From a virus (lineage: Duplodnaviria; Caudoviricetes): 64,000 nt of DNA. Position 1 is the first letter of the stretch; every line of letters begins with the position of its first letter. The position numbers and the translations under genes are program-made. The stretch covers positions 5,513-69,512 of IMG/VR virus record IMGVR_UViG_3300044580_000119; one strand, 5' to 3'. Under the pieces are notes generated by a model. It saw nothing but the letters and a program-made list of their open reading frames with translations. It had not been told where the DNA came from and did not search any database. Shown here in pieces: positions 9,344 to 62,517 of this stretch.

Positions 9344-9928
9344 TTATCTAGTCCATCCATAATAATTTGCATCAGTAGTAGTCAATGAACTACGTGGTTC
9401 ATATCCAATAGCATCACGCACTGGATAGTCATAAGGTTCGTCGCCGTGCTGTAAATGTTTGAGCCAGAATTGCCCTCGTCTATCAATTACATCCTCATTA
9501 TCGCCCGCATAAGTTTTTGCTATCTCTGCACCACCCGATACATCTGTTATGTTATTTGTATCAATCCCTTTGAAAACATCACCTGCCCTATATTGTTTGT
9601 TGTTATAAGATACTATGCCTGCAATTACCTCATACCAAGTACCATTAATAGCGGCAAGCGTACCACTCGACAAATCTAATATTGGCGATTCTACAAACAA
9701 ACGTTCCTCGCCATATAATGTGCCTTGTCCTGCCATTTCGAGCCTATTGGTAGTCGCCCCACTTAAATCAGTCGGATAAACTAATTGCAATGATAAGGAA
9801 TCTGGCGTCATTAATGATGCGTCGATTATATTCCCTGATCCTAAATCAAGATAGTTATATTTAAATTGATATGCTATTGTCCCATCATTACGGAACAAAT
9901 CAATATCATTTCTGCTAATATATCGCAT
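9344..9928 (-). CDS. Putative capsid-associated/auxiliary structural protein
   Basis: Directly downstream of the MCP, AAGGAG RBS, beta-rich; function inferred from position only. Confidence 0.45.
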   Translation of the reverse strand: MRYISRNDIDLFRNDGTIAYQFKYNYLDLGSGNIIDASLMTPDSLSLQLVYPTDLSGATTNRLEMAGQGTLYGEERLFVESPILDLSSGTLAAINGTWYEVIAGIVSYNNKQYRAGDVFKGIDTNNITDVSGGAEIAKTYAGDNEDVIDRRGQFWLKHLQHGDEPYDYPVRDAIGYEPRSSLTTTDANYYGWTR

Positions 9929-9947: not shown

Positions 9948-11267
9948 TTATGTTGTTCTTAAAAGTGCGTGGACTTGTTCGCGATGCCAAGCAATTGTGC
10001 CTTGCCATTCAATCATTAAATGGTAATCACGCTCACCTGGATCTTGCCAAGCTTTTGTTTCAAAATTCTTATTTACCATAATTTCGATTTCCTTAGGATC
10101 AATAACAAAACCCCAATCCTCGAAGCCAGTATTCATACGTAACATATCACTACGGATAATCTTTAATTCAAAACCTCCTGGAACAACATATGTATCTAAA
10201 TTCAACCCTATTTTTCCTGCTGGCACCTGGTCGGTCATTCTACGATAATCTTTAAATGCTCTATTGAATCTTTGCAATAATCTTGCACCTGCAATCATTA
10301 TCTTTTTATTCCCATTTGGTGCAGTTGCAAATGCCATATCAGTAGTAAAGTTCATAAAGAACTCTTCAAAATCTGTTATCGTAGAAGGATTATACGTAGC
10401 AACATTTGTTCTAATTGCATCAAATAAACCACCCATATAACGTGTGGCTCTATTCTGCGAAAACTCTACTTTGCGATGACCCCACATAAAATTATACTCA
10501 ATAGTCTTTTTGAAATTACGTGCTAATTGCTCTACCTGAAATTCCCAAGTTGCAGCTTCACGGGTATCTACCATATTACGCATATCCTCTGACATCGTAA
10601 ATGTTGTCTCTTTATGCTCAACAAAATTACAATTATAAATTGGATGAGCCTGATGAGAAAAACGCCCAATATCTTGCGACTCTTTAATAGTGCGACCTAA
10701 ATAAATTACATCTGATTTACTAAATGTCCTGAATGGTTCATCTTCAATAACACGTACTACCACATAACCAGGCGTACAAGTGCTAACCATCACTGTATTA
10801 GAACCAGTGCCAGTAGCTAATGTTTGCGGTAATGTTAAGGCAGTGCTAGGATCATCCCCCATCCACTTGCTCGATGTCGGCGTCATTACAACTTCAAGAT
10901 TCTGCCCTGTCTTTTGCACAAAGAGAATATCTTGAGGATCATAATACATATCAGAATTGGTCCAAGGTCTTGATGGTTGATCTAATTTCAACCTAGCAAA
11001 ACGACCATATCCTCCTGTGCTAACCAAAGTCGCACCTGCCTGAGCTTGCGAACAAAAATCGAAATGGTCAAACTCGTCAAACTCCATTTGAATCACTTTA
11101 TGACTACGTGGCTTAGGACCCCGCATTGCATACTGCGATAACGTTACTAATGGGGTCGCATCTGGAGATACAGTACGTATTTTTTCGTCTAAATGCTCTT
11201 TTAATTGATACGGATCTGCATTAGTTGTTGTCGCAGGTCCTCTAGTAATTACGCTATTAAAAGCCAT
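9948..11267 (-). CDS. Major capsid protein (HK97 fold, SU10/DUF5309-like)
   Basis: 439 aa after scaffold; N-terminal I..VSPDATPL, YNCNFVE, IEYNFMWG, RYMGGL motifs. Confidence 0.85.
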   Translation of the reverse strand: MAFNSVITRGPATTTNADPYQLKEHLDEKIRTVSPDATPLVTLSQYAMRGPKPRSHKVIQMEFDEFDHFDFCSQAQAGATLVSTGGYGRFARLKLDQPSRPWTNSDMYYDPQDILFVQKTGQNLEVVMTPTSSKWMGDDPSTALTLPQTLATGTGSNTVMVSTCTPGYVVVRVIEDEPFRTFSKSDVIYLGRTIKESQDIGRFSHQAHPIYNCNFVEHKETTFTMSEDMRNMVDTREAATWEFQVEQLARNFKKTIEYNFMWGHRKVEFSQNRATRYMGGLFDAIRTNVATYNPSTITDFEEFFMNFTTDMAFATAPNGNKKIMIAGARLLQRFNRAFKDYRRMTDQVPAGKIGLNLDTYVVPGGFELKIIRSDMLRMNTGFEDWGFVIDPKEIEIMVNKNFETKAWQDPGERDYHLMIEWQGTIAWHREQVHALLRTT

Positions 11268-12334: not shown

Positions 12335-14278
12335 TCATTTTGATACTCCAGGTTGATTCTGCTGTTGGACTTGCATTAATTGTTGTACCACATTACTTTC
12401 CTGCTCCTTCGGGCTGATGCCTATTGACTTTTTCAACTCATCACGAAGGACTTGTTTCTTAACTTGTGTTTGTACTTGCTCTTGTATTTTTTGTTCCTTC
12501 GCCTGTTGTGCCATCTCCATTGCTTGTTGCTGATATTCAGAATAATATTTTCGTATCTCTTCTTTCTTTGTTTCTGGTAGAGAAGTATATTCTAATAATA
12601 ATGGCATTGTAAGTTCAGGTGGCATTGGAACAACTTGGAAAAAGTGTAATAGTTCTGTGAAATATTTTTCTTTCATTGCTTGGGTTTGCATTGCCTCATC
12701 AACCACAATATCAAATTTAATTTCAGTAAGTGTATCTAATATTGAATTATCAATATTCACATATTGCAAATCTTTACTTTGCCCTATCAAACGAATAATT
12801 TGACGGGGCGACATACAATGTTGTATATACCATACTATACGCTCGCTTACCGCTAATCGCCAAACACGTAACGCTTCTAATACAGGTAAATGCCCTGTAC
12901 CTGCAGCTGCTGCACGAGCTTCTACAGCCCGCCCACTCTCAGCCGCATTTTCAGTTAAACCCATAGCGTTTGGACCGCCCATTTGCGTAGTCATTATTTC
13001 ACGAGCAAAATTAATAGTTTGGAATATCTGCGGATTCACAGGATTATCTTGCAATACTTGTATAGCGTTTCCTATAACTGGAATAATAGGACGTGTTGTA
13101 GATAACTCACGACGCACCTTTTCTAATGTTACCCCCCGTTTTAGCAATGCTTCATTAACTAATGTTACACCTTTATTCTGGGCACCTAAGGCGTGATCCC
13201 ATTGCGAGAAGCCACGATTGATTTCATCTTGTGGATTCTTTAAATTATCCACAACGCTAAAGAAATTGCCTTCCCAAAAATACGGAAAATATGGGACATA
13301 CTGATAATCTGTAATAGACAAATCATTGTCTATAATAACCTTATCACCTATCACAATAGTTTGATGAATTATCTCGCTATTGTATTTATCCATATATAAA
13401 AGTTCTGTACCATATGCATCGCCTAATGTAAGGGGTATCCCCTGCTCAATATAGCCAGATTGCAAAGTTTCAAAGTAAGTTTTTGCTTCATTTTTAGTAT
13501 CAAATTTATGTATCTCACCACGAATATCATCAACTACTATCCATACAGTAATCACTTTATGTTCATTATAATCATAACATTTTAGCAGTTCTTTTTTAGG
13601 GTCTTGATATTTCACATACTCCATTATATAGCGTTTTGCATTAATTGCATCCACATCTTCATCAGCTAGGATAGCTTCATTTAAAATATAATCTTCAAAA
13701 TCAGGAAATATAGATGCTAAGTTTTCACGAGATTCATAAAATACTCTACACATCCACGGTGCGTCACGCAATAGTTTATCGTGCGTATGATACAAATCCC
13801 AATACATTTCGCCAAATGGGACATATTCTATTTTCGGGTATCCATCTAGCACTTCATTAGTATCCCAATAAATATGTGCAAAACCCACACCTGTTAGACA
13901 ACCAGTGGTGAATATATCTGTTTCTATATTTTTTATATTATTGCTTTGTTCAACCCATTTAATTAAATACGATAATATATCCGAGGCTAATTCATCGCTT
14001 ACTTCTCTGCCGACAGCTTTAATATCCATACGAGTTTGCATTTGCACGCCAATAAGATGTTGAATTTTTGGGAATATTTCATTCATTACTTTTGGCTTCC
14101 GCCCCTGTTGCAAATGGCTTTGAATTTCTTCTTCAGTCCAAGGATGCCCACTATAATAATTATAATTTGTTAATCCCTCTTCGTATATCTCATTAAAATC
14201 AGAATTTACCGATTCTAGATTAGTTCTAACTTTCTCATATAAATCAATATCATTCTGTACTTGATTTGGTAATTTCAT
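12335..14278 (-). CDS. Portal protein (P22-like)
   Basis: 647 aa; YYSGHPW...GRKP..MNEI, YVPYFPY, LKNPQDEINR, ESGRAV..R, KFDIVV, Q-rich C-terminal barrel. Confidence 0.9.
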   Translation of the reverse strand: MKLPNQVQNDIDLYEKVRTNLESVNSDFNEIYEEGLTNYNYYSGHPWTEEEIQSHLQQGRKPKVMNEIFPKIQHLIGVQMQTRMDIKAVGREVSDELASDILSYLIKWVEQSNNIKNIETDIFTTGCLTGVGFAHIYWDTNEVLDGYPKIEYVPFGEMYWDLYHTHDKLLRDAPWMCRVFYESRENLASIFPDFEDYILNEAILADEDVDAINAKRYIMEYVKYQDPKKELLKCYDYNEHKVITVWIVVDDIRGEIHKFDTKNEAKTYFETLQSGYIEQGIPLTLGDAYGTELLYMDKYNSEIIHQTIVIGDKVIIDNDLSITDYQYVPYFPYFWEGNFFSVVDNLKNPQDEINRGFSQWDHALGAQNKGVTLVNEALLKRGVTLEKVRRELSTTRPIIPVIGNAIQVLQDNPVNPQIFQTINFAREIMTTQMGGPNAMGLTENAAESGRAVEARAAAAGTGHLPVLEALRVWRLAVSERIVWYIQHCMSPRQIIRLIGQSKDLQYVNIDNSILDTLTEIKFDIVVDEAMQTQAMKEKYFTELLHFFQVVPMPPELTMPLLLEYTSLPETKKEEIRKYYSEYQQQAMEMAQQAKEQKIQEQVQTQVKKQVLRDELKKSIGISPKEQESNVVQQLMQVQQQNQPGVSK

Positions 14279-14427
14279 AATAGTTTCACCCTATATTTAA
14301 TCATAATAGTTTCACCCTATATTTAATCATAATAGTTTCACCCTATATTTAACAATAATTTCCGCCCTATATATCATAATAGCTTCCGCCCTATATATCA
14401 TAATAGTTGCACCCTATATTTAATCAT
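14275..14427 (-). repeat. Six tandem 21-26 bp repeats (consensus TTAAATATAGGGTGAAACTATTATGA) encoding four ATGA-overlapped mini-ORFs
   Basis: Three exact 26-bp units at 14275-14352, then variants at 14353-14373, 14374-14397 and 14398-14423. Confidence 0.95.
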
Positions 14428-15896
14428 AAATAATAAGATTTTAAACTTACAAAATATGGATTTTTTCTTGGGTCGTATATATCGCCAGCTTCTAATTCGG
14501 ATAAATCAGTCGAGGGGCTTTCATAATCATCATCCATTCGGCGTTCCCGATCAGTATAAAAATTAGTTAATTCTTCTGAACTAATTGTTGTGTAATCTGG
14601 ATAACCAAAACCAGACACCAGCATATAACGTAAAGCATCAGCTGCATCATCAGGGCCAGTCGTATCTAAATCTTCTCTATTTGTTCCACTTCTTTGTGTA
14701 TATTGCAGTATTGGAAGAGTATCTATTAATGTGGTACATATATTAAAGATATGCAATTTGGGAGGTTTATTAGGAGTATGGAACAACCATTGCTTCACTA
14801 TCCGCCATCCATTTACACGTGAATTAGAAGCTGGCATTACTGGCAACCCACGCCGTATAAACATATTAGCCACAGATTCTTCTAAATAATTTTTCATTTT
14901 ACTCTCGCCCCATATCGAAGGATCTGCCCAAATAATGTGTTGCGGCAATTGATCGTATATAGGTTTAATATCATCTATATACTGTTCAGCTACACCCATA
15001 GCAGTATATTCTTGGAATATATATACACTACCAGTGTCAGGATCTTGAGCACCCCATAAGCATACTGTCGGGTGATCTGTATATCCTAAATCTAGCCCAG
15101 CCGCAAAATTCCAAGTGCGTGGTATTTTAAATGGCTCTATTACGTGCACATCATCAGACCAAGAATCAAAAAACTGACCTGCGTATACACTCCAATCACC
15201 ATTAAGCCAGGCTTCTAATATGCCAGGATCTTGCAATTTCAATGCTCTGATATATTGCTCCCTATCGAGATAAGGATTATCATATATACGAGCTGGGATA
15301 AATTTAAAATATTCTTTTTGCTCTAATTCTTCCGCCGACCATTGTGTGTAATCTCTATCTACAAAATGCGTTTTAAACCATAAATGACTAATACCCCCTG
15401 GGTTCCCAGTCATTAATACCGTAGCTTTAAAATTAATATTTTTAGCCGACCTACACGATGCAAATAACAACTTTAATAAATGTTCTGGAAAGTTAGGCGC
15501 TTCATCTATAATCATTAACTGATATTCCAACCCTTGAATTTTCTGTGCATCATTCTTTGTTTCAAGAGAACGAAAAGTAATACGTGAGCCATTATCAAAT
15601 ACAGCTACCTTCTGCTTGACCTTAAAAACATATCCAAATACGTCAGGTGGGTATCTGCTGATAAGCTCGTTAATAAATAACTCTTCAATTTCAGAATATG
15701 TCTTACGAATAATAACAACATTCAAACCTGGATAACTTATAGCACAACGCACAGCAGCAGCTAAAGCCATCCAACTCTTACCACCACCACGCGCACCACC
15801 ATAAAATATATATGAACCCGTGCCCAATAAATCCATTGCCTGCTTCTGCACTGCCGTAGGGCTCATATAATCGCTTAACTTCATAATTACTCCCAC
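14424..15896 (-). CDS. terL: Terminase large subunit
   Basis: Walker A GGARGGGKS, Walker B MIIDEA, TGNPGG, nuclease GLDLG and DDAADALRY; start is GTG 15896 or ATG 15884. Confidence 0.95.
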   Translation of the reverse strand: MGVIMKLSDYMSPTAVQKQAMDLLGTGSYIFYGGARGGGKSWMALAAAVRCAISYPGLNVVIIRKTYSEIEELFINELISRYPPDVFGYVFKVKQKVAVFDNGSRITFRSLETKNDAQKIQGLEYQLMIIDEAPNFPEHLLKLLFASCRSAKNINFKATVLMTGNPGGISHLWFKTHFVDRDYTQWSAEELEQKEYFKFIPARIYDNPYLDREQYIRALKLQDPGILEAWLNGDWSVYAGQFFDSWSDDVHVIEPFKIPRTWNFAAGLDLGYTDHPTVCLWGAQDPDTGSVYIFQEYTAMGVAEQYIDDIKPIYDQLPQHIIWADPSIWGESKMKNYLEESVANMFIRRGLPVMPASNSRVNGWRIVKQWLFHTPNKPPKLHIFNICTTLIDTLPILQYTQRSGTNREDLDTTGPDDAADALRYMLVSGFGYPDYTTISSEELTNFYTDRERRMDDDYESPSTDLSELEAGDIYDPRKNPYFVSLKSYYL

Positions 15897-15969
15897 CCTA
15901 TATAAATAATAATTGCATCCTATATAACAATAGTTTCACCCTATATAAATAATAATTGCATCCTATATA
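15881..15969 (-). repeat. Four degenerate copies of the same TATATAGG(G/A)TG repeat between terS and terL
   Basis: On the + strand: aataataattgcatcctatata twice, acaatagtttcaccctatata, tcataattactcccaccctatata. Confidence 0.9.
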
Positions 15970-15973
15970 ATAA

Positions 15974-16237
15974 TTATGTAGCAATCTTTTGATATTTTGG
16001 AGTAATGTTCCAGGTATTAGTAGGAGCATCTAGGTCATCTACAATACCTTTTTTGTCTGTTTTAGTACCATCCAAAGTCTTTCTAATTGTTATTAGTGTT
16101 TGCATTGCTTTAAAAAATTCATTAGAATTACTATCATTATCAGTAATAAAATCAGCAAGACGTTCAACACCTTGACGAATTAAATCATCAATATCCTTTT
16201 TTAATTGGTCGGGATTGTATTCTACTTCGTTTTCCAT
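15974..16237 (-). CDS. Putative terminase small subunit
   Basis: Short helical protein directly upstream of terL; positional inference. Confidence 0.45.
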   Translation of the reverse strand: MENEVEYNPDQLKKDIDDLIRQGVERLADFITDNDSNSNEFFKAMQTLITIRKTLDGTKTDKKGIVDDLDAPTNTWNITPKYQKIAT

Positions 16238-18915: not shown

Positions 18916-19106
18916 TTCATTATTTTTTCATAAGAAATTATAGCATTCTGTATTTGATATATAGGTGCTATATTTTCTTTTATACGTGATAATATGTCAT
19001 TATTAATTTATAATATTAAGTAGGGTATAAGAATATAATCAGTATAGAATTAGTATAGTATTAGGGGAATGACAAAAAGGCGGGGTAGGATATAGTGCAC
19101 GTCAAG

Positions 19107-19390: not shown

Positions 19391-19412
19391 ATATTTCTTA
19401 TAAATAAATCTA

Positions 19413-19696
19413 GTATTATTATTATAATATATTATATATATATTTATATTATTATAATATATATTATTATTAATTATTATATATTTATATTATAATAATA
19501 ATATATTATATATATATATTATTAATATTATATTATATATATATTAATTATTAATTATGAATATAATATAGCCATATTATATTCATAATATATATTATAT
19601 TATTATATTTATATATTATTATAATATATTATATATATATTTATATATTATTATATTATTATATTATTATATTATTATATTATTATTATATTATAC
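19413..19696. repeat. Almost pure A/T low-complexity tract; candidate origin unwinding element
   Basis: About 280 bp of TAT/ATA repeats with only a handful of G/C bases. Confidence 0.85.
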
Positions 19697-19785
19697 TTGA
19701 ATATCAAAATTTCATACTTGAAAAGATGAATATAAATATTTTGATATGAAAGTTATAAATTTCATAAAAGATGTAATAATATGTG

Positions 19786-20762: not shown

Positions 20763-20782
20763 ACCTGCAATAAAAACTAAAT

Positions 20783-20844
20783 TCTAAAATCAAAAACTGA
20801 TGAATACCCCAAAATCTAAAATCAGAGAGCTGGTGAATACCCCC
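20783..20844 (+). repeat. Imperfect direct repeat pair TCTAAAATCA-N4/5-CTG(A/G)TGAATACCCC
   Basis: Copies at about 20783-20810 and 20815-20844. Confidence 0.75.
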
Positions 20845-20972
20845 CAACCCCCCACAATACCACAATGTGATCTTATTCCCCACTAAATTATAAACTCCAA
20901 ACTTAATAACAGCTCAAAAATTATTTAACCTGCCCTAACTATATATTGCTGCATAATAATATTTAGATCAAT

Positions 20973-21048
20973 AATAAGATAAAAATGTCCTATTTAATAA
21001 TAGGACAAAATAGTCCTGTTAAAGATAATAGGACAAAAATGTCCTATT
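20973..21048. promoter_or_regulatory. Three tandem 22-bp palindromes AATAGGAC-N6-GTCCTATT
   Basis: 20973-20994 (degenerate left arm), 20999-21020 (one mismatch), 21027-21048 (perfect arms). Confidence 0.8.
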
Positions 21049-21224
21049 TCTTTTCTTTTCTTTCAATCATACAAAAAACATAATTCATTAAAAATATAAA
21101 CTGCATAAAGTATTTTGAATAAAAGTAAAATAGTTGTAGAAAAATATTTTTCTCTGCATAAAACAAAATAAAAATCGGAATAAAAAATTAATTGTAATCA
21201 ATTCATAAAAATGTAATAACAAAC

Positions 21225-23243: not shown

Positions 23244-23496
23244 AGTCAGACTCCTCGTCAAGTAAATCATAATATACTTCCATTATCGTAGCGCAAGACT
23301 CCACTAAACTACATACCTCCTCAATTGTGTCAACCATATCTTCAAATACTATGCCGTCTCTATCTTTAATAACTACGTTGTAATAATCATAAATTGTAGA
23401 GACTATAATATGATAATCGCCTCTGTTAGTTACGAAATGATGAGCGTCTATTTTATGGAAGCCCATAGTCTCTAATGTTAATGTTTCTCGTTTCAT
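23233..23496 (-). CDS. Hypothetical acidic protein, paralog of 21789-22049
   Basis: AAGGAG RBS; shared GIVF.D motif. Confidence 0.7.
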   Translation of the reverse strand: MKRETLTLETMGFHKIDAHHFVTNRGDYHIIVSTIYDYYNVVIKDRDGIVFEDMVDTIEEVCSLVESCATIMEVYYDLLDEESDYEF

Positions 23497-23507
23497 ATAA
23501 TACTCCT

Positions 23508-23921
23508 TTAATTAATTTCTTTATATTTAATATTGTTATTATTTTGTATCTCATAAAAGAACTCTTCAATATCTTGTTGATAGTCCTTCATTAGATCCCT
23601 GCGCATATCTACCAATAATAAATTTGCTAATGTTACAGAGTCTAAGTCTAAGACACCATACCCATCCCTGTGTGCAATGTATAAAGATAATTCCAACGAG
23701 TCATCATACTCATCTAAAAACTTCATTGCTTTACTGTATTTTTTTATGTTATTATCTTCAAACGCATCTCTGTAGTCTAAAAAATCTATCAATGACTCGA
23801 ATGGTGAATCCTCATCAATCTGGTCGTAATATTCCGGATCAATATAATCAGATAGTCGCCAATCTAAAAATTCAATTTGATCGAGTATCTGTTTAAATTG
23901 TTGTTTTTGTGATTCGTTCAT
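23508..23921 (-). CDS. Acidic helical protein, Ocr-like DNA-mimic candidate (paralog C)
   Basis: Very D/E rich; YSKAMKFLDEYDDSL..SL..A...GY...DLDS..LANLL. Confidence 0.55.
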   Translation of the reverse strand: MNESQKQQFKQILDQIEFLDWRLSDYIDPEYYDQIDEDSPFESLIDFLDYRDAFEDNNIKKYSKAMKFLDEYDDSLELSLYIAHRDGYGVLDLDSVTLANLLLVDMRRDLMKDYQQDIEEFFYEIQNNNNIKYKEIN

Positions 23922-23922
23922 T

Positions 23923-24210
23923 TTAAACTCCTTTATTAATATTATTTGTTTCTACAATTTGTTTATCTTCAATTGATACTTTCCATTGTTTCTTTTGTGT
24001 CTCAAAACTACTAAAATAATAGTTAAATACCTGCCTAACTTGTTCGAGTCTCTCTATTATGTCCTCCTTGTTTAGAAAATGATACTCATAACTTGTATCA
24101 TTAAGTTCATTATAAACATACATTATGTAATCAGTAGTAGCTTCTTCCCAAATCATAATATGTATCCCCTGAGGCACTACTGTAATTTTATCTTTAATTG
24201 CCTCGTTCAT
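23923..24210 (-). CDS. Hypothetical protein
   Basis: GAGGAGG RBS; tiled in the operon. Confidence 0.65.
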   Translation of the reverse strand: MNEAIKDKITVVPQGIHIMIWEEATTDYIMYVYNELNDTSYEYHFLNKEDIIERLEQVRQVFNYYFSSFETQKKQWKVSIEDKQIVETNNINKGV

Positions 24211-24611
24211 TATAGATCCTCCTCTGTGTTTCGTATCCTCGAAAAGAACTCTTCAATTTCCCGCTCACGATCCTCAACCGATCCTAAACATAATTGAGAG
24301 TATAACAAATTTGCTAATATTTCTGAATCGATTTCATAAATCGAGTATCCTACGTCCCCAGCATAACGTAATGTATATACCATAGACGCATCGTTCTCCT
24401 GCAAGAAAGCCATCGCCGAGTCATAACCTATAATTTCGCCTGTTTCGAATGCACTGTTATCCTTGAGATGTCCTATAATTGAATCGTATGGGTGCTCGAA
24501 GTCTATATCTTTCTCATAATTCTCGGGATCGAAATAATCAGAGACTGACCATTCACCAAAACCGATCCCTATTAAGAACTTCGTAATTTCATTTTTTGTT
24601 GATTCTGTCAT
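24210..24611 (-). CDS. Acidic helical protein, Ocr-like DNA-mimic candidate (paralog B)
   Basis: EIIGYDSAMAFLQENDAS...L..A...GY...EIDSEILANLL. Confidence 0.55.
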   Translation of the reverse strand: MTESTKNEITKFLIGIGFGEWSVSDYFDPENYEKDIDFEHPYDSIIGHLKDNSAFETGEIIGYDSAMAFLQENDASMVYTLRYAGDVGYSIYEIDSEILANLLYSQLCLGSVEDREREIEEFFSRIRNTEEDL

Positions 24612-24613
24612 TT

Positions 24614-25003
24614 TTAATACTCCTTTAAATTTTTAAAAAATTTATTAATATTGTCTGATTCGTCTGCTAAATCTTCTTTAATTATGTCCATTTCTAATAT
24701 ACTCGCTAATATACATATATTTAAATCCTCAATCTTGAGCCCTTTCTGCGCAGCTAATTTTAATGAACACGTTAAATCTGAGTCGAAATCCCTTAAAAAA
24801 TCTATTGCTTGATCACTGTCCAGGAATAGATCCACATAGTCGAGCCCTCCACATTTTTCTAAATAGTCCATTATAGAATTATAAGCATCATCAAAATCAA
24901 TGCTATCGTATTCCCCCGGTGCGTAATAATCAAGTATGCTCCAATTTCCAATAGAAAATGTATTCAAATAATTTTCTATTTTATTTTTTGTTGATTCTGT
25001 CAT
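24614..25003 (-). CDS. Acidic helical protein, Ocr-like DNA-mimic candidate (paralog A)
   Basis: MTESTKN start identical to paralog B; DQAIDFLRDFDSDL..SL.LA...G...EDLN..ILASIL. Confidence 0.55.
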   Translation of the reverse strand: MTESTKNKIENYLNTFSIGNWSILDYYAPGEYDSIDFDDAYNSIMDYLEKCGGLDYVDLFLDSDQAIDFLRDFDSDLTCSLKLAAQKGLKIEDLNICILASILEMDIIKEDLADESDNINKFFKNLKEY

Positions 25004-25014
25004 TTTAATACTCC

Positions 25015-25431
25015 TTATAAATAATGTTTATTAATAAAATTATAAATTGTTTTCATAATTGTGTCGGCTGTAATAGAATCATTGAAAAAACACTCTTCTA
25101 TACCTAAATCATCGGCGAGTCTGCTGATGCGTGTATTGGCGTCATTGTTTATAACAATTGACAAAATGAATTTAGGATTCAAGTCCTCTATAATATTGGT
25201 ATCGCTTATTAGTAATGGTCGGTTAGATACACGTATGTAGTAGTCATCAAAAGGATAGTCTGTGTCGGGATCTTCAAAATCCCATTCGTTATATGTAGTT
25301 TCGCCGTTGCTTACTAATATAAAATATAGTCCTGAATGTTTGATCCATCCAGGGTATCCAATATAATTTTGCAATTGATGCACTGTCTCGAGTGCATCAT
25401 CATTAAATATCATATTCAATGTTTCTTTCAT
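25015..25431 (-). CDS. Hypothetical acidic protein
   Basis: AAGGAG RBS; tiled. Confidence 0.65.
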   Translation of the reverse strand: MKETLNMIFNDDALETVHQLQNYIGYPGWIKHSGLYFILVSNGETTYNEWDFEDPDTDYPFDDYYIRVSNRPLLISDTNIIEDLNPKFILSIVINNDANTRISRLADDLGIEECFFNDSITADTIMKTIYNFINKHYL

Positions 25432-37756: not shown

Positions 37757-38293
37757 ATGATAAATCATATTAATACAAACGGAGCAGTATTAAAGTGGGC
37801 AAGAGAGAAAGCTGGGTTGTCAAGAGATAAAGCATCTGAATTATCAGGCATTCCACGTGAAGCATTAAAATTTATGGAAACAAATGATTTGTATCCAAGT
37901 GTTGATGAAATCAAGAAACTCGCAGAAATATACAAAGTAGCGGTGGCGACATTATTACTTGACGAACCACCAAGACCCCATAAAAAAATATATATCAGTG
38001 GTGCAATAAGTGATGATTTAGACCATTATATTGATAAATTTATACAAGCGGAGTTAGAACTAAATGCAATGTTTCCTAATGCAGTAATTATTAATCCAAT
38101 AAAATTCGCAGAATATATTCCAAAAGAAAATTATAAAGAATTGCTATTTGAAGGGCTAAAATCACTAAAAGATTGCGACGCTATTTATATGCTACACGAC
38201 TTTTACAAGTCAAAAGGTGCAATGAGTGAATACTATACAGCACTCGCATTCGGTTTAGAAATTTTTTATCAAAACAGGAACGACAATGAATAA
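37757..38293 (+). CDS. XRE-HTH fused to DUF4406 (nucleoside deoxyribosyltransferase-like) domain
   Basis: LKWAREKAGLS...KLA..Y......LDEPP then KIYISGAIS, INP, CDAIYML..F.KSKGA..E. Confidence 0.8.
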   Translation: MINHINTNGAVLKWAREKAGLSRDKASELSGIPREALKFMETNDLYPSVDEIKKLAEIYKVAVATLLLDEPPRPHKKIYISGAISDDLDHYIDKFIQAELELNAMFPNAVIINPIKFAEYIPKENYKELLFEGLKSLKDCDAIYMLHDFYKSKGAMSEYYTALAFGLEIFYQNRNDNE

Positions 38294-42558: not shown

Positions 42559-45500
42559 CTATTTTTGTGCTTTCTTTTTATTTTCTATATATAAGTCTAA
42601 AAATCTTTTTATTTGTTCTTCTTCTGGATAGTCTTCGATACTTCGCCCTTTGTATTTGTCATCAGCATATATAGATTTTACTCTATCAGATTGTCGTAAT
42701 ACATTGTGTAAAATATCATTGGTCATATCTGCTCTCTGCAAACTGCTAACATAACGTGCGGCCGCTTGTTCTAAGGCATTTAAATTACGTTCGGCTTCTG
42801 TATTTCTGCCGTAATAACGATCCACTTGGGGATCAAATTGTATAATTAAATTTCTAATATTTTCATCTTGTAATAAATCGTCGATATAATCTTTCCCTAC
42901 TTTAAGCATTTCTTTATATTTTTTTGTTTTTCGTGGCTTACCTAAACCATAATAATTGCGGTATATTTCATCAATTTTATCTTTCTGTGATTGGTCTAAT
43001 CGATTAATTGCATCTGTTAAATTGTCCTTTTCATTTCTCTTTAAATTTAATGTTTCAAATTTGGTAATATCTTCTATGCGGTCAGTAGGTGTCATATTTG
43101 ATTTGTTATATATCTCTAACCCTGTATGAACATCTAAATTAGATTCACCAAATATCATTAATTTGATAGCTTCTAATGTTGAAACATCACGTAATGGCAT
43201 CCCATTTCTATCAGTCAAAATTCCACTTGTTAATGCGTTATAACCGTGCGCTAAGTTGTATATTTGTGGCAATCTCTTACGAAATGTGCTTCTAATAAAA
43301 TCTTCTTTAGATTGTGTCTTTGCATTACGAATCATATCACGTGTAATATCCACAATAAATGCGTCAAGTAAACCACTCATATCACCTAGCTGACGAAATC
43401 TAATATCTGTAAATGTTCCCAATACTCCATCATATAATGCACTGTAAAACTTTCGAGCGTTCTTTTCTGATGCTCCTAAATTCATTAGATATTGAACTGC
43501 TTGTTCTTCCATCCAGACATCGATTTTGAAGTTCTTGTCCTGATTGGACATTTGAACTAAATCTTCTATTAACATTTTTGCATCTTCCGTGCCTGGCATA
43601 TTGCTATATCCTACAAGCAAAGTGCTGGCAATTGCAAATGCCCCAAGTCCAGCTACCGCCATTTTCTTTTGTTGACTTGCACCTGCTCTAATAGTCAAAT
43701 CAGCTATATAATTGCCTATATAATATAATTGATTAATGAATGGCGATTTCATTGTAATAAACCATTTACCTAATGGCACGTGGTCTATCAACCAACGTTC
43801 AATACCCGAGCGCCATTCTTTTTCGTAAATACCTTGTGTCATAAATGAAACATCTAAGCCTCTAGCTAATACTTCATCTATCGCAGCTTCTTCTGTTATC
43901 TTTCCATTGGCGATTAAGTCTTTATATGTAGGAGCGTCTAATGCGGTTTGCATCATAAGGGAGGGGTATCTATTCATAAACTCTGTATGTTTCATAGGAC
44001 TGTATCCTATATCTACAATCTTGCGTAAAGATTTACCAAATTGCGATGTTACACCCTCCACTATAACGGATTGTATAACATTGCGGTCGAATATTGCGTG
44101 ATGTATATCATTTAAAAATGGATCGCTATAAGGCGAAGCGTTAGCAAAATATTCTTTGAATAGTTCCATTTGCGATAATGCTTCAGCTTGTGCATATGTT
44201 TTTGCTACGGTTGTGCCCTTAGCTTGGTCATACATCTTATTTAGTGCTGCTAATTGGCTCATTAAATATGTTGAATTAGTAATGGCGCCATTCAATCTAT
44301 TTTTGGTAGCTAATACAGCATTTGTAAAATACAAAGCACCTACACCAAGTTGTTCTGCCGCTCGCCCCATTACTCCAATTTTAGAGTTATTAAACGCATC
44401 TACGTTTTGCTTTACTGTCGATACATTAATATTCAACATCCTATCGTGCAAATCCTGCACCAATCTTGGGTATCGCCCTGATATGCCCATATCGTTCAAT
44501 GTCATTAACTCGTCTAATAGTATATTGCGAAAACGAGTTTTTAATTCCGATTTCTGCAAACTTTCTTTATTCTTATTCATTGCGTCAAAATAGTATGAAT
44601 CTTTATTGACTTTTTTACCTGTATATCGTAATAAGTCGTCAGGATGATACCCAAAAGAATTATGTGTTGTTAATTGGAATAGTGAGGGATTTTCTAATTT
44701 AGTAAGCATTCGGCGTAATACTTTTTCTAATTCTGCCTCAGCTTGACTATGTGATAATGAGTTCAGCATATCATCTACATCATCAAAGTATTCCATAGCT
44801 GATGAATCCAACATTCCTTCGTCAGCTAAACCTTCTAAATATGTTTTATATTCGCTTATTTTTCCTACAATTTTCGCTTTGTTAGCGTTTAAATTTTCAG
44901 CAATATTAGAGGTTTTTAAAATTGACGCAACTATTTCTTTAGCTTCTGTTAGTGCAAGATTAGTTTTAAATTCATATTTAAATGTTTGGACTTTATATAG
45001 CTTCCCCGCTTCATCTACAAAAATATTCGCAGGATATTTTAGGTCTTTGGAAGGGAGTTTTAAATGGCGACCTCCTATATCGATACCATATTGCATAAAA
45101 TTATTAACTTTCTTTTCGCTATCGTAGTATAGCATATAATCGAATTGTTCCGTTTGTTTATATGTGGGTATTCTCTCAAAGTTTTTATTTACTTCATAGA
45201 TAGATAGTCCATAAGGAGCCTTATATTTCATATCCCAATCACGGGTGCTATGCTGTATTAATATAGAATGGTCTTTGAATTTGATAGCTTTATCTAACAA
45301 ATCAACATATTCTTCGTATTGTGCAATTAATGCTTCATTTTGTTTTATTTGGTCACGGAACCCTTTTGCTGCTACATTATCTTCCTCAAGATTTTTTAAT
45401 TGGAAAGTGAGTAGTTCGTTCGTTTGTTCTCTATTATTAATTAATTTTTCATATCTTTCTTTGATTGCAGGTAAATCTGCCACTGTATGTCTATTGACAT

Positions 45501-48500
45501 CAATAATATTAGAGGGTATATTGTTAAGTGTAGCATAATCAGTTAACCATTGCTCAGCATCTATTTTGTTTTTATATAAATCAATTACTTGCTGTTGGAA
45601 CTTTTTACTTTCTGATAATAATTTAGATAAATCAGGTGCTTCCTGTTTGAATACTTTATGTGCATATTCGATTATTAAATCGTCTTTTAAATAATCTCCT
45701 TTAAGATTATTAGTTCGTATATTTTGTCTTTCTAAATCCCTGTTTTTTTTAGGATATTCATCAGCAGCACGCCACGCATCTTCTAAATCTCTGAATACCC
45801 GATCGCCAATTTCACCTATATAGTATGCCATACTATTAGGTGCTTTAATTCCCATTTCTTTTATTTCTTTATCAGCACCTTTTAATTTCTTAATAAAAGG
45901 ATTAAAAATTTCTTTTTTCCATTCTTGGTCTTTTCTAGATACTGGCATAATACCATCTTTAATCATCAACCTTCGCAAACGTGTTACAGCGTCTCCTACT
46001 AATTGCACTATGGGAGCACCCCATAATTGTTTCGTTTCATTTTGTCTTAAATACATTACTGCATTTGCAGTAGCTTCGGATAATTTACTTGGATTAGTTT
46101 CTTTAATTCTATCAAGATAACCAACCACTGCGATATAATTATAATATGGTTTCTTAGGTCTTTCATTATATAAAGCTTGTAATTCGGGATAATCTTGCAT
46201 ACGTGCCAATATATCTTCTTTTGCCATAGGGATATTTATATCTTTTCTTGCAAATTCAGTTGAATAGGCATCGGGCAACCCCCGATTTTTATATAAATTT
46301 CCCATTGCCTTTTCATCATATTGGTCAAATGCTCTTTTAAATAAATTATGAATAGCACCTGGTAATTTTTCTAGTCCTGGAATTAGGGACATATACAATG
46401 TGTTCTCATCAGAATTAATTGATAAATCATTTTGCAAAGGTTTGAATGTAACCGTTCCATTTTCTAAATGTTGATATTTACCTAAATGATTTAATTTAAT
46501 AAAGTCCTGTGCTTCCTGGTCTGATAATCCAAGTAAAGTTAAAGCATTATGTAAATTATCTTCACCACCCCAATCTAATGTTAAATATCCACGTTCTGTA
46601 CCCTCGCTAATTTTAGTTAAATAAACAGGAGAATTTTTATCATTATCAATTAAATTGGATATTTTATTTATAATTTTTTGATTATATTTAAATTCTTTTG
46701 ATTGTTTAACTGTGCCATCTATATCTTTCAATCCTGCTTGTAAAGTTTGTCGTGTAAGTATATCATTTTCTAATTGTTTGTTAGTTGCAGTACGTTTCTT
46801 TTGTTGTTTTGGTGGAGGTGTTTCAATAGTTTCAGGTGGAGTTATTTTAGGCATATCTTGTATTGTGATCTTTCCATCGGGGGTATATCTAGCTACTATA
46901 TTTATATTATCATATTTATACAAAACTCCTTTTATCGGACCATCTTCAAATGGGATAATATCATTTAATATTGCAGTAGGATAATTTGTTTTAATTTGTT
47001 CGTGTGTATTAAATATAGTATGTTCATTAGGTGTCAGTTTGATATTAATATTTCTATCTTTGAGAAACTTAACAACATCAGCAACAGTTTTTGCCTCGTT
47101 GAATGCTTTGGCGTAAGTTTTAGGTGTTATATATTCTGTAATGTTTTTTGTATAATCAGATAAATTAGATGCATCAACTTTATTTTCATATAAGAATTTA
47201 TTACGAGCAACTTTATTCGATATATTTTTTGTTTGTTTAGCAACATATTCATCCTGTAACTTTGCGAATTGAGTATGTCCTGATTTATTTACAGAACCTG
47301 TAGCTTCAATATTTTTTGCATCTTGTTCTACTTGTTTAGTTATCTTTTCTGTTGTGCGTTGTTCTAATATTTTAGTAGGCGATGGTATAGATTTCTTTTT
47401 TAATTCCTTTTGTGGTTTTTCTTTATTTTTAACAACTGATTTAGTAGTTGGTTGCTCTGCAGACGTCGCCGCTACCTTTACAGTTTGCTTTGTTTGTGTT
47501 GTAGGTTCCTCTTTTACTTTTGCAGGTTCAGGTTTAATAGGTTCTGCCTTTACAGGTTCTGCCTTTACAGGTTCTTCACCTTTAATAACAGGTTGCTCTG
47601 GTGTTTCTTTAACAGGTGTAACGATTTTTTGATTTTTAATTTGTTGCAAATCGGGATATTCTTTTAAAACTACGTCGGGAACTTTCTCACCTTCTTCAAG
47701 AGCATATTTGACATATTTTTTATGTTCATCTTCGGGGTTAAAATAATATTTTCCAATTTTTTCAGGGTTATATGTATAGCTTTCTACATATTTTTTTATT
47801 TTTTGATTCATCCAATCTATGATTTCATTTATATTGGATGAGGCAAAACTTTCACGAGGAGTCCAAAATCCATACCCTGGTGGTTGATAAGACACATCGT
47901 ATGTTATTTTTCTCTTTCCTTTCGTTGTTATATCAAAATTAGGCGAGTCTTTGTCTGAAGATGTTGAATAATATGTTTTAATATCTCCTGTTTTAGTGGT
48001 GATGTCTTCTTTGGTAACTTTTAATTCATTGTATCTATCTTCTTTGCGTTGTTTATCATATTTATCAAGATATTCATCAAGTTCTTTACCCGTCATTTCG
48101 TAGATTTCTTTGTTAGGAAGTCCTCTTTTTGCACGTTCTTCTGATGCTTTTCTATATTTAATGTTTTGGTCTATATTATCCCAATATTTAGATAGATGAT
48201 TAAGTTTATAATTGTCAACAAAATATTTTTCAACTGGGCGATTATGTTCATCCAATTCGCCCGTATAAACTTTGTGATAAAGACCAGATAAATCCGTATC
48301 AACTATTTCTTTGACGTCTTCTAAACTTCTGCCTGTTACCTTTTGGAATAATTCATAGGTCTTTTCACGAGTTAGCATTCTGGGATCCTTGAGAACCTTT
48401 TCATATGTTTTGGCGGCTTCTTCACGAAAACGGGGTTTATCTTTTTCAAAAAGGTAATATAAACCTTCATTGTCAATACCATATTCCCACTCTGAGAATA

Positions 48501-51500
48501 TCTTATCTGAATAATTTGCTTCTATATCTTTAAGTGTCTTAATTTTAGATATTAATTTATCAGGTTCTACTACCTCTGGTTCTGCCTTTGCAGTTTCTTC
48601 ACCCTTAATAACAGGTTGCTCGGGTATTGTTTTAATTGGTTCTTCTACTTTTGTAGGTTCAATTGTATTTTTAGCAGGCTTTACTTCTGTTTGTGGGGGT
48701 ATTTCTTCTGTCTTGGTAGTTTCTATTGGCTTTGTAGCTTCCTCTTTAACAGGGGGCATTTCTGTTTGTTCTGGAGGTATTTCCGTTGGTTTAGTTTGTT
48801 CGATTGGAACGTTTTCTGTTTGAGTTGGTTTTGCTGTAATTTCAGGTTCTACTGGACGTGCTGGTGTAATCTCTGTTTGTTCAGGTTGTTGTGTTTCTTT
48901 AATAGGCTCAGCTGTTTCTCCCGCCACTGTTTCTGGTTGAATGGTTTCTTCTGTTGGTGGTATTGCTTCTTTTGGTGCTGTTGCTGTTTCTGTTTTTTCA
49001 GGTTCTGTCTTTGGTGGTTCAATAATTTGCTCGGGCAATTGCTCGGGTTTAGGTTCAGTAATAGTTGGTATTTCTTCACGTGTTGGTTCATATTTTATTT
49101 CATTAGGTATATCACCTGTAATAGTTTGACTATATTTTTTAAATCCAGGCTGTGTCATTTCGCCTTGATGTAGTGTGGGGACTTTAGTCTCGGTATTAAT
49201 ATATATATCTAAATCATTAGGTAGAATGCCTTTCTGTTTTTGTCTTGTTAGATATTCATTTAATATACCTAATTCATTTCTGTACATATCCACAGGCGCT
49301 TCTTTATTGCTTAAACTTGCAGTATGCCCTTGTTTGCCTTCCGAAATATAATGCAAAGTTTTAGCGTCCCCATCATCAGTATATATAATATAACCTTTCT
49401 TTTTACCTTCACCTGTAACTGCTTGAACATTTTGAATGTTCTCAGGATTTATTTTATGAGTTTCAAATACTTTATGAACTGCCCCTTGTAAGCGTTGCGA
49501 TTCTTTATCAGCGAAGAAATTATCAATGTTCGTAATATTCTTAAAATATTCATTTGCTTCTTTAGTATCTTTTGTCTTGGCTAATGTTGCGATAATTTGA
49601 CTTGCACCTTGATCGGGATCAATTAACGTCTTAATTAAATTATTAGCAGTTTGTGGTGAGATATTTTCTTGCTCTGCTACTTGTGGCGCAACTTTCTCTG
49701 CCGCTCTATTGAGCGCTACTTGATCATCATTTTCTATCGCAGTTTTTACTTCTGGTTCTTGCACAATTGTTTTAATAACTCTATCTGCTGTTGCCTGTGC
49801 CTCTGGGCTAATTTTCAATCCTTGTTTTAATTCGTATTCACGTCTGGCTTGTTTGCCATACGCCACATCAAATATAGGAAATACTAAACCTACCATAAAT
49901 GATAAACCTAAATTATGCGCTTCTTCAGGCGTTATAGTAAATTTTTTCTCTTTCGATGTTGTAGGTGCTTGTGCCAAAGGAGCTAAAAAGAACTCTGGTT
50001 TCTGATCTATTTTTCCTGATACGAATGTCCAACCTGCATTGTCAACACCTGATAATAATGATGCTCTGATAAATTTAGGTATTGATAATTTGCCTGTAGC
50101 TTCTATACCTTTTGAAACTGGAATGCCTATTGCAGTGCCTGTAGCTATACCACCAATATTCATTGCTGTATTTATAGCAATACTTTCAGCTGCTTGACCT
50201 GCGGTTAAATCTCCTCTTTGATATTTATTTAATACTGTTAAATTATGTTCTGTACCTATTCCAGTTGCTGTTGATCCAATTGTAATGATACGAGATGGTA
50301 TTTTTCCAAGTTTGAGAGCAGAGGATGCAAGTTTAGCTGCACCTCCCGCAGCTCCACCTAAGCCTATTGCGGGTATAAAACTACCTGCTAATGAACCTAC
50401 TTCATAAGCTAAAGGTTCCTTATATTCAACAGGTAGAGTTTCTACTTTATTTTCTTCGCCTCTCAATAAATTCAATGCCTGTCGTGGGATCTCTGCTAAA
50501 CTCTCACCAAAACCTGCTAATGCACTTTTAATTGGTCCCGCCTGTTCAGCTTCTGTTTGTTTTCTTTTATACATTGTGTATAAAAATTCAGGGTTATTAG
50601 CAATTCGCTTATATACCGGATCGTTATATAATGCCGCCCCTAATTCAGCTGCTGTTGGTCTAGATTGAGACATTATATTTGGCGGGAATTTTTGTTCTAA
50701 ATATTTGCGGTCTTTTTCTGATGCAAAAGATAATACATCATCAAGTTCAACGGCACCCGTAAGGTCATATTTAATAGGAACGATTTTACCTTTTTGATTT
50801 ACTGTTGCAACTGGAAAAGGCATTACCTCTCCATTATATATTCTATATATGTTCTCATCATCTAATATTATACGACCATAACGGGTGGCTATTCCTAAAT
50901 CATATGCATTATCAGGTACTATCTTTTTATCTATTTTGTTTTGCAACCGATTTACAACATCAACGGATAATGGTTGATACATTCCTTTCCAATAATCATA
51001 AATAAATTTTAATTGTCCGTCATCTTTATTATATATATATCGACGCAATTCAGGTAATTCAGTCGCTAAAACATTTTTAGACATATCACCATCGAAATAT
51101 GCTCGCATATAACGTACTGCGTTTTGGTTCTTTATATTAAAGTCATCTGTTTCTTGACGAAGTCGGTCTTGTTGAAATAATGTCTCAGCTATATTTTTTG
51201 ATATATTTGGTTCTATATATTGATACTCATTATAAAATGATATATTATCTATATTTTTGAATTGTTCAACTTGTTTTTTTTCATCAGGGGTTAATTCAAT
51301 AGGTTGTTTCCATACCTCTTGGATTGGCGGTGCCACATCAATAGATGATTTTGGTGCTGTCGGATAAAAGTTTTGTAATACTTTATAATCTAAATTTTTA
51401 AGATCCTCAGGATTTATTTTAAGTAATGGAGTTCCTGCTAATATTGGCTGTTGTGTTTGTTGTTTTGGTGGTGGTGCTGGCTCGTAGGGTGGGCTGTATT

Positions 51501-61192: not shown

Positions 61193-62311
61193 CTAAGATA
61201 ATTTTGTTTCTAAATTTAATGAATACGCAGTAAATAAAGTATCGCCAGGTAAAGTTCCCCCACCTTTAAAATATAATAAATGATGATAATTATCCACTTG
61301 GAAACTCATTGTTACATTATCCATACCTAAATTATATTCAACAAAATTTTCTAATATATCCAAATCAATATCAGTAGCGCTTCGATAAGCAACATATCTA
61401 ATTCGCCAGGCTTTCACGTGATCAGCGTCAAACATTGCGTGCACACGCATATCACCACTTATTATATGTTTTGGCAACATTTCATACCAACCATCTTCTT
61501 CACCATTTAGCATTAATATTGCGCCATAAGGATTGCTTGCCCACGTATGAAAGCGTAATATTGTGAAACGGGTATTATTATTCAAAGAATTAACGAAATC
61601 ACCCGATAAAGCAAATTCACCTACCCGCATAGCATTAGCATAAGCACCGCACGCTATTGCCCCCATCTGACTATTAGTAGTTGCGTTAAATCCTATAGCT
61701 GTACTGACATTAGATCCATTTGTAAAACGACCACCTGCAAAACCATTATTTGAACCATTAGCATAATTACCTATGGTAGTACCGTATACATTACTATTGG
61801 CACTAGAACCTATTGCTATACCCATATTAGAACCTTGTGCATTAACTCCAATATTAATATTATCTTTATTATCAAAAAGCCATTTCGTACCATCCCATCG
61901 GAACTCTACACGTGCTTGTGAATATAAATTACTGTATGTGCGATTTGCATCCCGCACTATTATATATTGATTACCCGAATCTGTACCATTATGAAATATG
62001 ATAAACTTTTGCCCCATCGTTAATCCCGTAGTTGGCAACGTAACAGTGCGAACTAATGATGTTGAGAGTATTTGTATCGGCGGGTCTGACGCTGTAAGTG
62101 TTTTATCCGCCGATAGAAATTGCACATTAACTGCTTCATTAGACCACGATACCCACTGAGTACCATTGTAGTATTTCAATACCTTTTCAGTAGAGTTATA
62201 ATACATTTGTGCTTCTTTAGGTGCTGGACTTGTAGGAGCTGACGCACGCACATCAATTCGTGGCTGTTTCAATATGTTCTGATTCACTTCAATATCTGAT
62301 AATATCTTCAT
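61193..62311 (-). CDS. Fibre/receptor-binding protein with YadA-head-like repeats
   Basis: N-terminus paralogous to 58549-60036; NIG/AIG/TIG/AGG/AIG/ACG repeats at about 13-15 residue spacing. Confidence 0.7.
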   Translation of the reverse strand: MKILSDIEVNQNILKQPRIDVRASAPTSPAPKEAQMYYNSTEKVLKYYNGTQWVSWSNEAVNVQFLSADKTLTASDPPIQILSTSLVRTVTLPTTGLTMGQKFIIFHNGTDSGNQYIIVRDANRTYSNLYSQARVEFRWDGTKWLFDNKDNINIGVNAQGSNMGIAIGSSANSNVYGTTIGNYANGSNNGFAGGRFTNGSNVSTAIGFNATTNSQMGAIACGAYANAMRVGEFALSGDFVNSLNNNTRFTILRFHTWASNPYGAILMLNGEEDGWYEMLPKHIISGDMRVHAMFDADHVKAWRIRYVAYRSATDIDLDILENFVEYNLGMDNVTMSFQVDNYHHLLYFKGGGTLPGDTLFTAYSLNLETKLS

Positions 62312-62332
62312 AATAACTTCATCCTATATTTA
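62308..62332 (-). repeat. Solo copy of the terL-flanking repeat encoding MKLL* overlapped with the fibre start
   Basis: TAAATATAGGATGAAGTTATTATGA. Confidence 0.7.
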
Positions 62333-62351
62333 TAATAACTTCTATATTTTA

Positions 62352-62517
62352 TTAAACAATATTTAAATTTTCTTTCTTTGTTATCCCAAAATAATCCATT
62401 GCTTGCTCATCTCTCTCAAATTCAATCCACCCCACATTTATCCCCTCAGGCGTCCAAGCAGTATTGCAACTTAACATATTCTTTCCCATTTCTATGTTTA
62501 CCTATAATTTCATTCAT
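62352..62517 (-). pseudogene. Possible frameshifted small gene
   Basis: MNEIIGKHRNGKEYV in one frame and SCNTAWTPEGINVGW...NIV in the +1 frame; joined they fill the gap. Confidence 0.35.

Follow-up and report, generated by a model that had tools for sequence, protein, structure and literature searches.

The window analysed here is a stretch of 64,000 nucleotides from a phage record that is circular and complete, with 69,457 bp and a further 55 nt of terminal overlap. On its minus strand an 87-aa gene, terL, a gene for a P22-like portal protein, a probable scaffold gene and an SU10-type capsid gene follow each other in this order. Members of the phage cluster are named from Ca. Kapabacteria/Bacteroidota MAGs, and the host is inferred, by binning only, to belong to this group. 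Sequencing runs that hold the phage come mostly from sludge, wastewater and digester samples; in the RNA runs X15 and X16 about half of the sampled words are present. The features needed for what follows are these:

12335..14278, minus strand: P22-like portal protein, 647 aa (PF16510, E 1.6e-71; PHROG 156).
14275..14427, minus strand: terL-portal array, a variable-number tandem repeat (VNTR) of six units (26, 24, 24, 23, 26 and 26 nt) plus a final ATGA.
14398..14427, minus strand: mini-ORF 1, MIKYRVQLL*; its ATG overlaps the terL TGA and it is without an SD of its own.
14327..14401, minus strand: mini-ORF 2, of 24 codons; another ATG lies in frame at 14377.
14301..14330, minus strand: mini-ORF 3, MIKYRVKLL*.
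14275..14304, minus strand: mini-ORF 4, MIKYRVKLL*, ending on a TGA that overlaps the portal ATG; the portal SD (-8.5 kcal/mol) lies within it.
14424..15884, minus strand: terL, terminase large subunit, 486 aa from the ATG (PHROG 2, E 1.9e-40; Pfam Terminase_6N, Terminase_3).
15885..15973, minus strand: sibling array before terL, four cores spaced 22, 21 and 22 nt, without an ATGA relay.
15974..16237, minus strand: 87-aa gene at the terS position, identified by position, with homologues at the same place in relatives.
62308..62351, minus strand: third site, one core and a partial copy before a 372-aa tail-region gene (at 62311).

In the window sequence, four mini-ORFs connect the terL stop to the portal ATG through five successive ATGA overlaps, with translations and stop/start overlaps exactly as claimed by the first-pass annotation of this DNA. 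TRF places the array at 14275-14429 with a period of 26, 6.2 copies and a score of 196. The core-to-core spacings are 23, 24, 24, 26 and 26 nt and the ATGA-to-ATGA spacings 26, 24, 47, 26 and 26, the third core having no ATG behind it; these values can also be parsed otherwise than into the two shortened units of 24 and 21 nt described earlier. It had also been claimed that an SD-like core precedes each next start. This holds for four of the five overlaps but not for the start of mini-ORF 1 (14427), where pairing is negligible (-0.8 kcal/mol). All six cores share one reading frame, and the indels deduced for the units (-3, +1, -3) all spare the chain.

The core, a 10-mer of the form ATATAGG[G/A][T/C]G, is not confined to the terL-portal gap. 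It also forms the array of two to four copies before terL and lies before the tail-region gene, both of which had escaped the first-pass annotation. It occurs 11 times in the genome, whereas 60 dinucleotide Markov simulations gave 0.7 copies on average and never more than 5; all 11 copies are on the late strand and fall within the three sites. A genome-wide scan with a profile built from these same 11 sites scores them at 23.7-32.5 and everything else at 14.1 or less (shuffle maximum 15.0). The sibling array fills the 89-nt gap before terL and has an exact 18-mer in common with the portal array. Here the core GTG is in frame with terL instead of belonging to an ORF coupled at -4 nt, and terL has an in-frame GTG at 15896. 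At the third site a short ORF, MKLL* (62322-62308), overlaps the ATG of the tail-region gene as ATGA. Because the last core is followed at all three sites by an ATG 8-9 nt further on, the repeat unit is a copied translation start made up of SD, spacer and ATGA. Pairing of the portal core with the 16S end, taken from a genome of the presumed host family, is comparable to that of the common AAGGAG starts of this phage (-8.5 and -8.3 kcal/mol, respectively). The core contains TAG and, in most copies, GTG or ATG, while the complement of the 16S end contains GTGA, so that an SD-like sequence supplies stops and starts unasked. A looser relay, with TTG or GTG starts and gaps of 0-1 nt, can be traced through a short terS-terL allele; in the window allele this path needs one 12-nt gap.

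Several other elements of the window deserve mention. An unlisted 45-aa ORF (62352-62489, minus strand) lies immediately upstream of the third motif site. Just after dnaB a perfect 6-bp inverted repeat, ATATAG-GTG-CTATAT (18959-18973, plus strand), looks like the array core, and a run of small acidic genes (23496-25431, minus strand) with near-identical AAGGAG(T)-type start regions represents a second start-associated repeat family. Between dnaB and rusA about 300 nt of almost pure A/T (19400-19700), with purine-rich repeats before it, is a candidate replication origin. A gap between converging genes contains three 28-nt copies of a palindrome of the ATAGGAC-N5-GTCCTAT type (20970-21049) and a 33-bp duplication followed by C-runs (20779-20843), and is a candidate operator or packaging region. 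A 3094-aa ORF (42559-51843, minus strand) has no Pfam or PHROG match; a 1819-aa ORF starts at 4588 on the same strand.

The number of units in the terL-portal gap differs between strains that are 96-100 % identical. Six units are seen in the window only and five in contig L001 and in runs X1, X2 and X6; L002, L099, L100 and, in its main allele, X4 have a single unit (all figures for L099 and L100 agree, and the two may be non-independent; the L003 contig ends inside terL). Run X4 also yields a piece of 56 nt in which two 26-mers adjoin, and a low-depth piece from X6 would fit the one-unit allele; judging from these contig pieces, alleles appear to coexist within both runs. Between terS and terL, the window, L001 and L003 each have four cores; L002, L099 and L100 have two. 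G001 does not differ from the window at the third site. In the one-unit allele the mini-ORF reads MIKYRVELL* and the portal SD is weak (-3.4). Copy number and frame conservation across related contigs, the comparison proposed at the outset, thus show alleles of 6, 5 and 1 units with the relay intact in every one. However, 15 of 15 computed in-register deletions also leave the relay intact, and agreement among the alleles is therefore automatic. Further strains proved scarce: a metagenome scan gave one locus, a search of the 130-genome family only G001, G066 and one weak match, a scan with the tail gene none, and GenBank phages only portals at 34 % identity or less.

That the array could be an assembly artefact had been raised from the start, and the restriction of the six-unit allele to the window would fit such an origin. 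This is extremely improbable, since five-unit alleles were recovered in L001 and three runs and one-unit alleles in other assemblies, which refutes it for the array. In addition, the internal units have diverged, and the perfect period-26 stretch (78 nt) is probably too short to loop at k=55, a value of k deduced from the 55-nt terminal overlap.

Differences from L001 are gathered in tracts, one inside terL (14708-15095) and two in the capsid region (10748-11154 and 9467-9829), whereas the portal gene differs by a single base. At the sequence level these tracts point to mosaic recombination among strains. Positions 16002-16078 are covered by no run.

One rival reading takes its model from the gene 17 amplification boxes of phage T4, reportedly short homologous sequences on either side of terL, one of them at the 3' end of terS. 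The two arrays resemble them in lying on both sides of terL, which they bracket exactly and with the 18-mer in common; one of them adjoins the 3' end of the 87-aa gene that occupies the terS position. They could thus be putative TerS/pac sites or recombination boxes for amplification or exchange of terL, the more so as T4 has pac at the 3' end of gene 16 and a gp16-dependent amplification (PMC3012670). We consider this very unlikely. Unlike the T4 boxes, the arrays are intergenic, tandem and start-associated, and the third site is remote from the terminase genes. No amplification is seen in the contigs and no joint of a terL duplication or deletion in four of four runs, although contigs drop rare forms, and the strain differences lie inside terL and the capsid region instead of forming a block bounded by the arrays. 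For the 87-aa protein, an Atlas T5-terS lead (0.86) stands beside the absence of any match in Pfam, PHROG or a fold search, and its low-confidence model (pLDDT 64) has three long helices and no structural match at E<=0.001. Its C-terminal tail (15974-16035, minus strand) extends about 10-20 aa past the point where homologues end against terL.

Seven loci from six distant lineages, out of about 160 returned, were compared (identity 42-48 % in TerL or 37-54 % in the capsid). TerL and portal genes are separated in them by +10, -1, +8, -8, -1 and +9 nt, and the core motif is absent from all six lineages. Since these gaps are tight and free of the motif, the tight junction is probably ancestral and the repeat a lineage-specific addition. 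As to TerL itself, many relatives of about 790-860 aa (P0014, P0017, P0031 and others) have extra PF05204, PF14528 and PF14890 domains, presumably of the homing-endonuclease and intein kind; the TerL of L024 measures 782 aa.

Candidates for a wider spread of the motif did not hold. Four of 14 viral stretches with tandem cores come from three contigs of this phage and the other ten lie on other contigs with different flanks; two of 12 single-unit matches are this phage, and the four inspected among the remaining ten are all within one unrelated coding sequence. Among the tandem ATATAGG-core repeats of the ten other viral contigs (L006, L011-L019), two sit at the end of their contig and another two no more than 1.8 kb away from it; such repeats may be terminal or packaging motifs.

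Bases outside the SD are common to all three sites, as a binding site would also explain. The units might be bound by a regulator of the three late genes, acting on translation or on transcription in the manner of a start-associated sequence (SAS) or a stoperator, the ORFs being incidental. The motif is asymmetric, occurs in a single orientation, is start-associated and has conserved non-SD positions, as do the SASs of Cluster K mycobacteriophages (PMC3203893), and the phage encodes an HTH_3 protein (37757-38293). This explanation nevertheless seems unlikely to us. There are only three sites, the 21-26 nt spacings are without helical phasing, the one-unit strains have one core base changed and the motif is absent from relatives. 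At the RNA level, five regions fold no better than shuffles (z -0.4 to +1.1) and Rfam gives no match at threshold; a PYLIS_3 match below threshold (E 0.1), located within the portal gene, was rejected. Sigma-70 promoters are not in excess (23 found versus 26.4 expected). No RNA-polymerase family was found among 44 proteins scanned against Pfam and PHROG, and T7-like promoters were dropped as an idea when five RNA-polymerase motifs gave no match in six frames.

How much of the relay is expected by chance? A random unit of 20-28 nt that starts with ATGA relays in 16 % of trials, and the same test with the real core gives 14 %, 37 % and 57 % under progressively looser rules. When a 26-nt unit is subjected to random indels and substitutions, the chain is kept in 12-13 % of cases for three broad sets of indel sizes, in 26 % for indels of -2/-3, and in 15-39 % with fewer substitutions. 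With ATG as the only start codon, simulated neutral variants retain the relay in 11-13 % of runs; the figure is 21-26 % with ATG/GTG and 32-38 % under the loosest rule, which adds TTG and a +1 gap. The strict joint chance of unit geometry (0.16) and variants (~0.12) is ~0.02, a post hoc figure for one lineage picked for its striking look. Because neutral simulations retain the relay in ~11-38 %, selection for it is suggested rather than shown. The geometry of the chain follows from the duplicated unit beginning and ending with ATGA.

These figures bear on the original proposal of a purpose-built device, i.e., a selected, copy-number-tunable chain of reinitiation events that would set portal output relative to TerL. 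Retention of the relay in all alleles seen, their coexistence within two runs and the low joint chance speak for such a chain, as do the weak SD of the one-unit allele and the finding that translational coupling is almost lost at gaps of ~20 nt, so that a bridge would be needed (PMC10666635). However, in-register changes cannot break the chain, the strong SD directly before the portal ATG in long alleles could allow initiation independent of the upstream units, and the sibling array is also variable, without any ATGA relay. With the geometry coming from unit duplication and neutral retention at ~1/8 to 1/3, the proposal is not supported as made, and we regard such a selected chain as unlikely. 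A broader version sees a ribosome-relay dial: the phage population would tune the stoichiometry of the packaging motor by varying how many SD-ATGA units lie between terL and portal, and likewise by a second chain, of the TAG-G-RTG type, between terS and terL. Whatever the frame in which a ribosome arrives, the core would bring it back to the same one. As a whole this version appears distinctly improbable.

The reading we prefer, with a probability of about 0.6, is that the array is a VNTR of copied gene-start units (21-26 nt) in a once-tight junction and that the mini-ORF chain is a tolerated by-product. Its observed basis is the anatomy of the array, its copy-number variation, the three start-associated sites and the tight junctions of relatives. 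In the presumed origin step, a start module would have been copied to three late-gene starts. Slippage, or short-homology annealing between TTATGA ends, may then add and remove units, for which homologues of Erf and exonuclease VIII encoded by the phage would be available. A 26-nt unit bounded by ATGA would automatically give a 9-codon ORF that stops on the next start. As for translation, ribosomes leaving terL would restart at ATGA while others load afresh at the SD of each unit, and portal translation would for this reason be little harmed by expansion. What selection removes is probably limited to alleles deprived of both chain and SD, a view put forward for MIRUs as well; such alleles would be purged because coupling scarcely survives a gap of ~20 nt.

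In long alleles the relay may be dispensable, as the portal's own SD matches the strength usual for this phage. Retention of terL-portal coupling as such is plausible, given that copy number varies, that the alleles keep the relay and that junctions in relatives are tight. The multiplication of the terS-terL array without an ATGA relay also counts for a by-product. Against it count the one shared frame, the chain-sparing indels and the joint chance given above, the looser relay that can be followed through the short terS-terL allele, and the non-SD bases shared at three sites. The weak SD and intact mini-ORF of the one-unit strains likewise speak against it, as they suggest that coupling matters in these strains.

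The locus offers a compact natural allelic series (1, 5 and 6 units, with strong and weak SDs) at a junction that is tight in relatives, and hence a ready test of whether reinitiation chains transmit, damp or decouple translation. For MIRUs, little-changed expression through a coupled ORF is a proposal made in a review (PMC12548453). If copy number did tune portal output, the packaging operon of this phage would contain a contingency locus that acts on translation. As the evidence stands, the array can be taken for a tolerated repeat that also marks strains.

Mycobacterial MIRU/VNTR elements, said to have been described originally by Supply et al. in 1997, provide the closest comparison. Literature searches, with subscription papers mostly outside their coverage, found no paper on a phage terL-portal-gap repeat of this kind. 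The first-pass annotation knew of no description of such a device, yet MIRUs are a published precedent: they insert at start codons, with an internal ORF coupled at -4 nt and expression likely minimally affected (PMC12548453); their size, number, end repeats and use in typing have been reviewed (PMC3184786). At the portal and tail-gene sites the phage element shares the start-codon placement inside operons and the ORF coupled at -4 nt. Like MIRUs it has 4-nt direct repeats at its ends (ATGA on both sides of the portal array) and a copy number that varies between strains (6, 5, 1), and expression is proposed to be little changed. MIRUs, however, measure ~40-100 bp, contain GC-rich internal inverted repeats and occupy 40-50 mycobacterial loci per genome, whereas the phage units are 21-26 nt long, AT-rich, without stable inverted repeats, essentially an SD plus a start, and restricted to three sites in one 69-kb phage species.

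Two further systems are related in part. The -4 nt stop/start overlaps are those of termination-reinitiation coupling, for which overlaps of -4 or -1 nt are typical (PMC6728339), with the difference that usual ATGA coupling joins two real genes and the predicted chain here passes through repeat-born mini-ORFs; since a strong SD precedes the portal ATG, dependence of portal translation on upstream translation may be only partial. The Cluster K SASs likewise place an asymmetric RBS motif in one orientation a few bases before the ATG. Their 11-19 copies stand singly in front of non-structural genes and are conserved from one subcluster to another (PMC3203893), unlike the phage motif with its three sites, tandem arrays and packaging and tail genes. 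The phage element works like a MIRU, yet its size, structure and distribution place it outside that class; the arrangement is one already described, represented here by a phage variant that is smaller and AT-rich.
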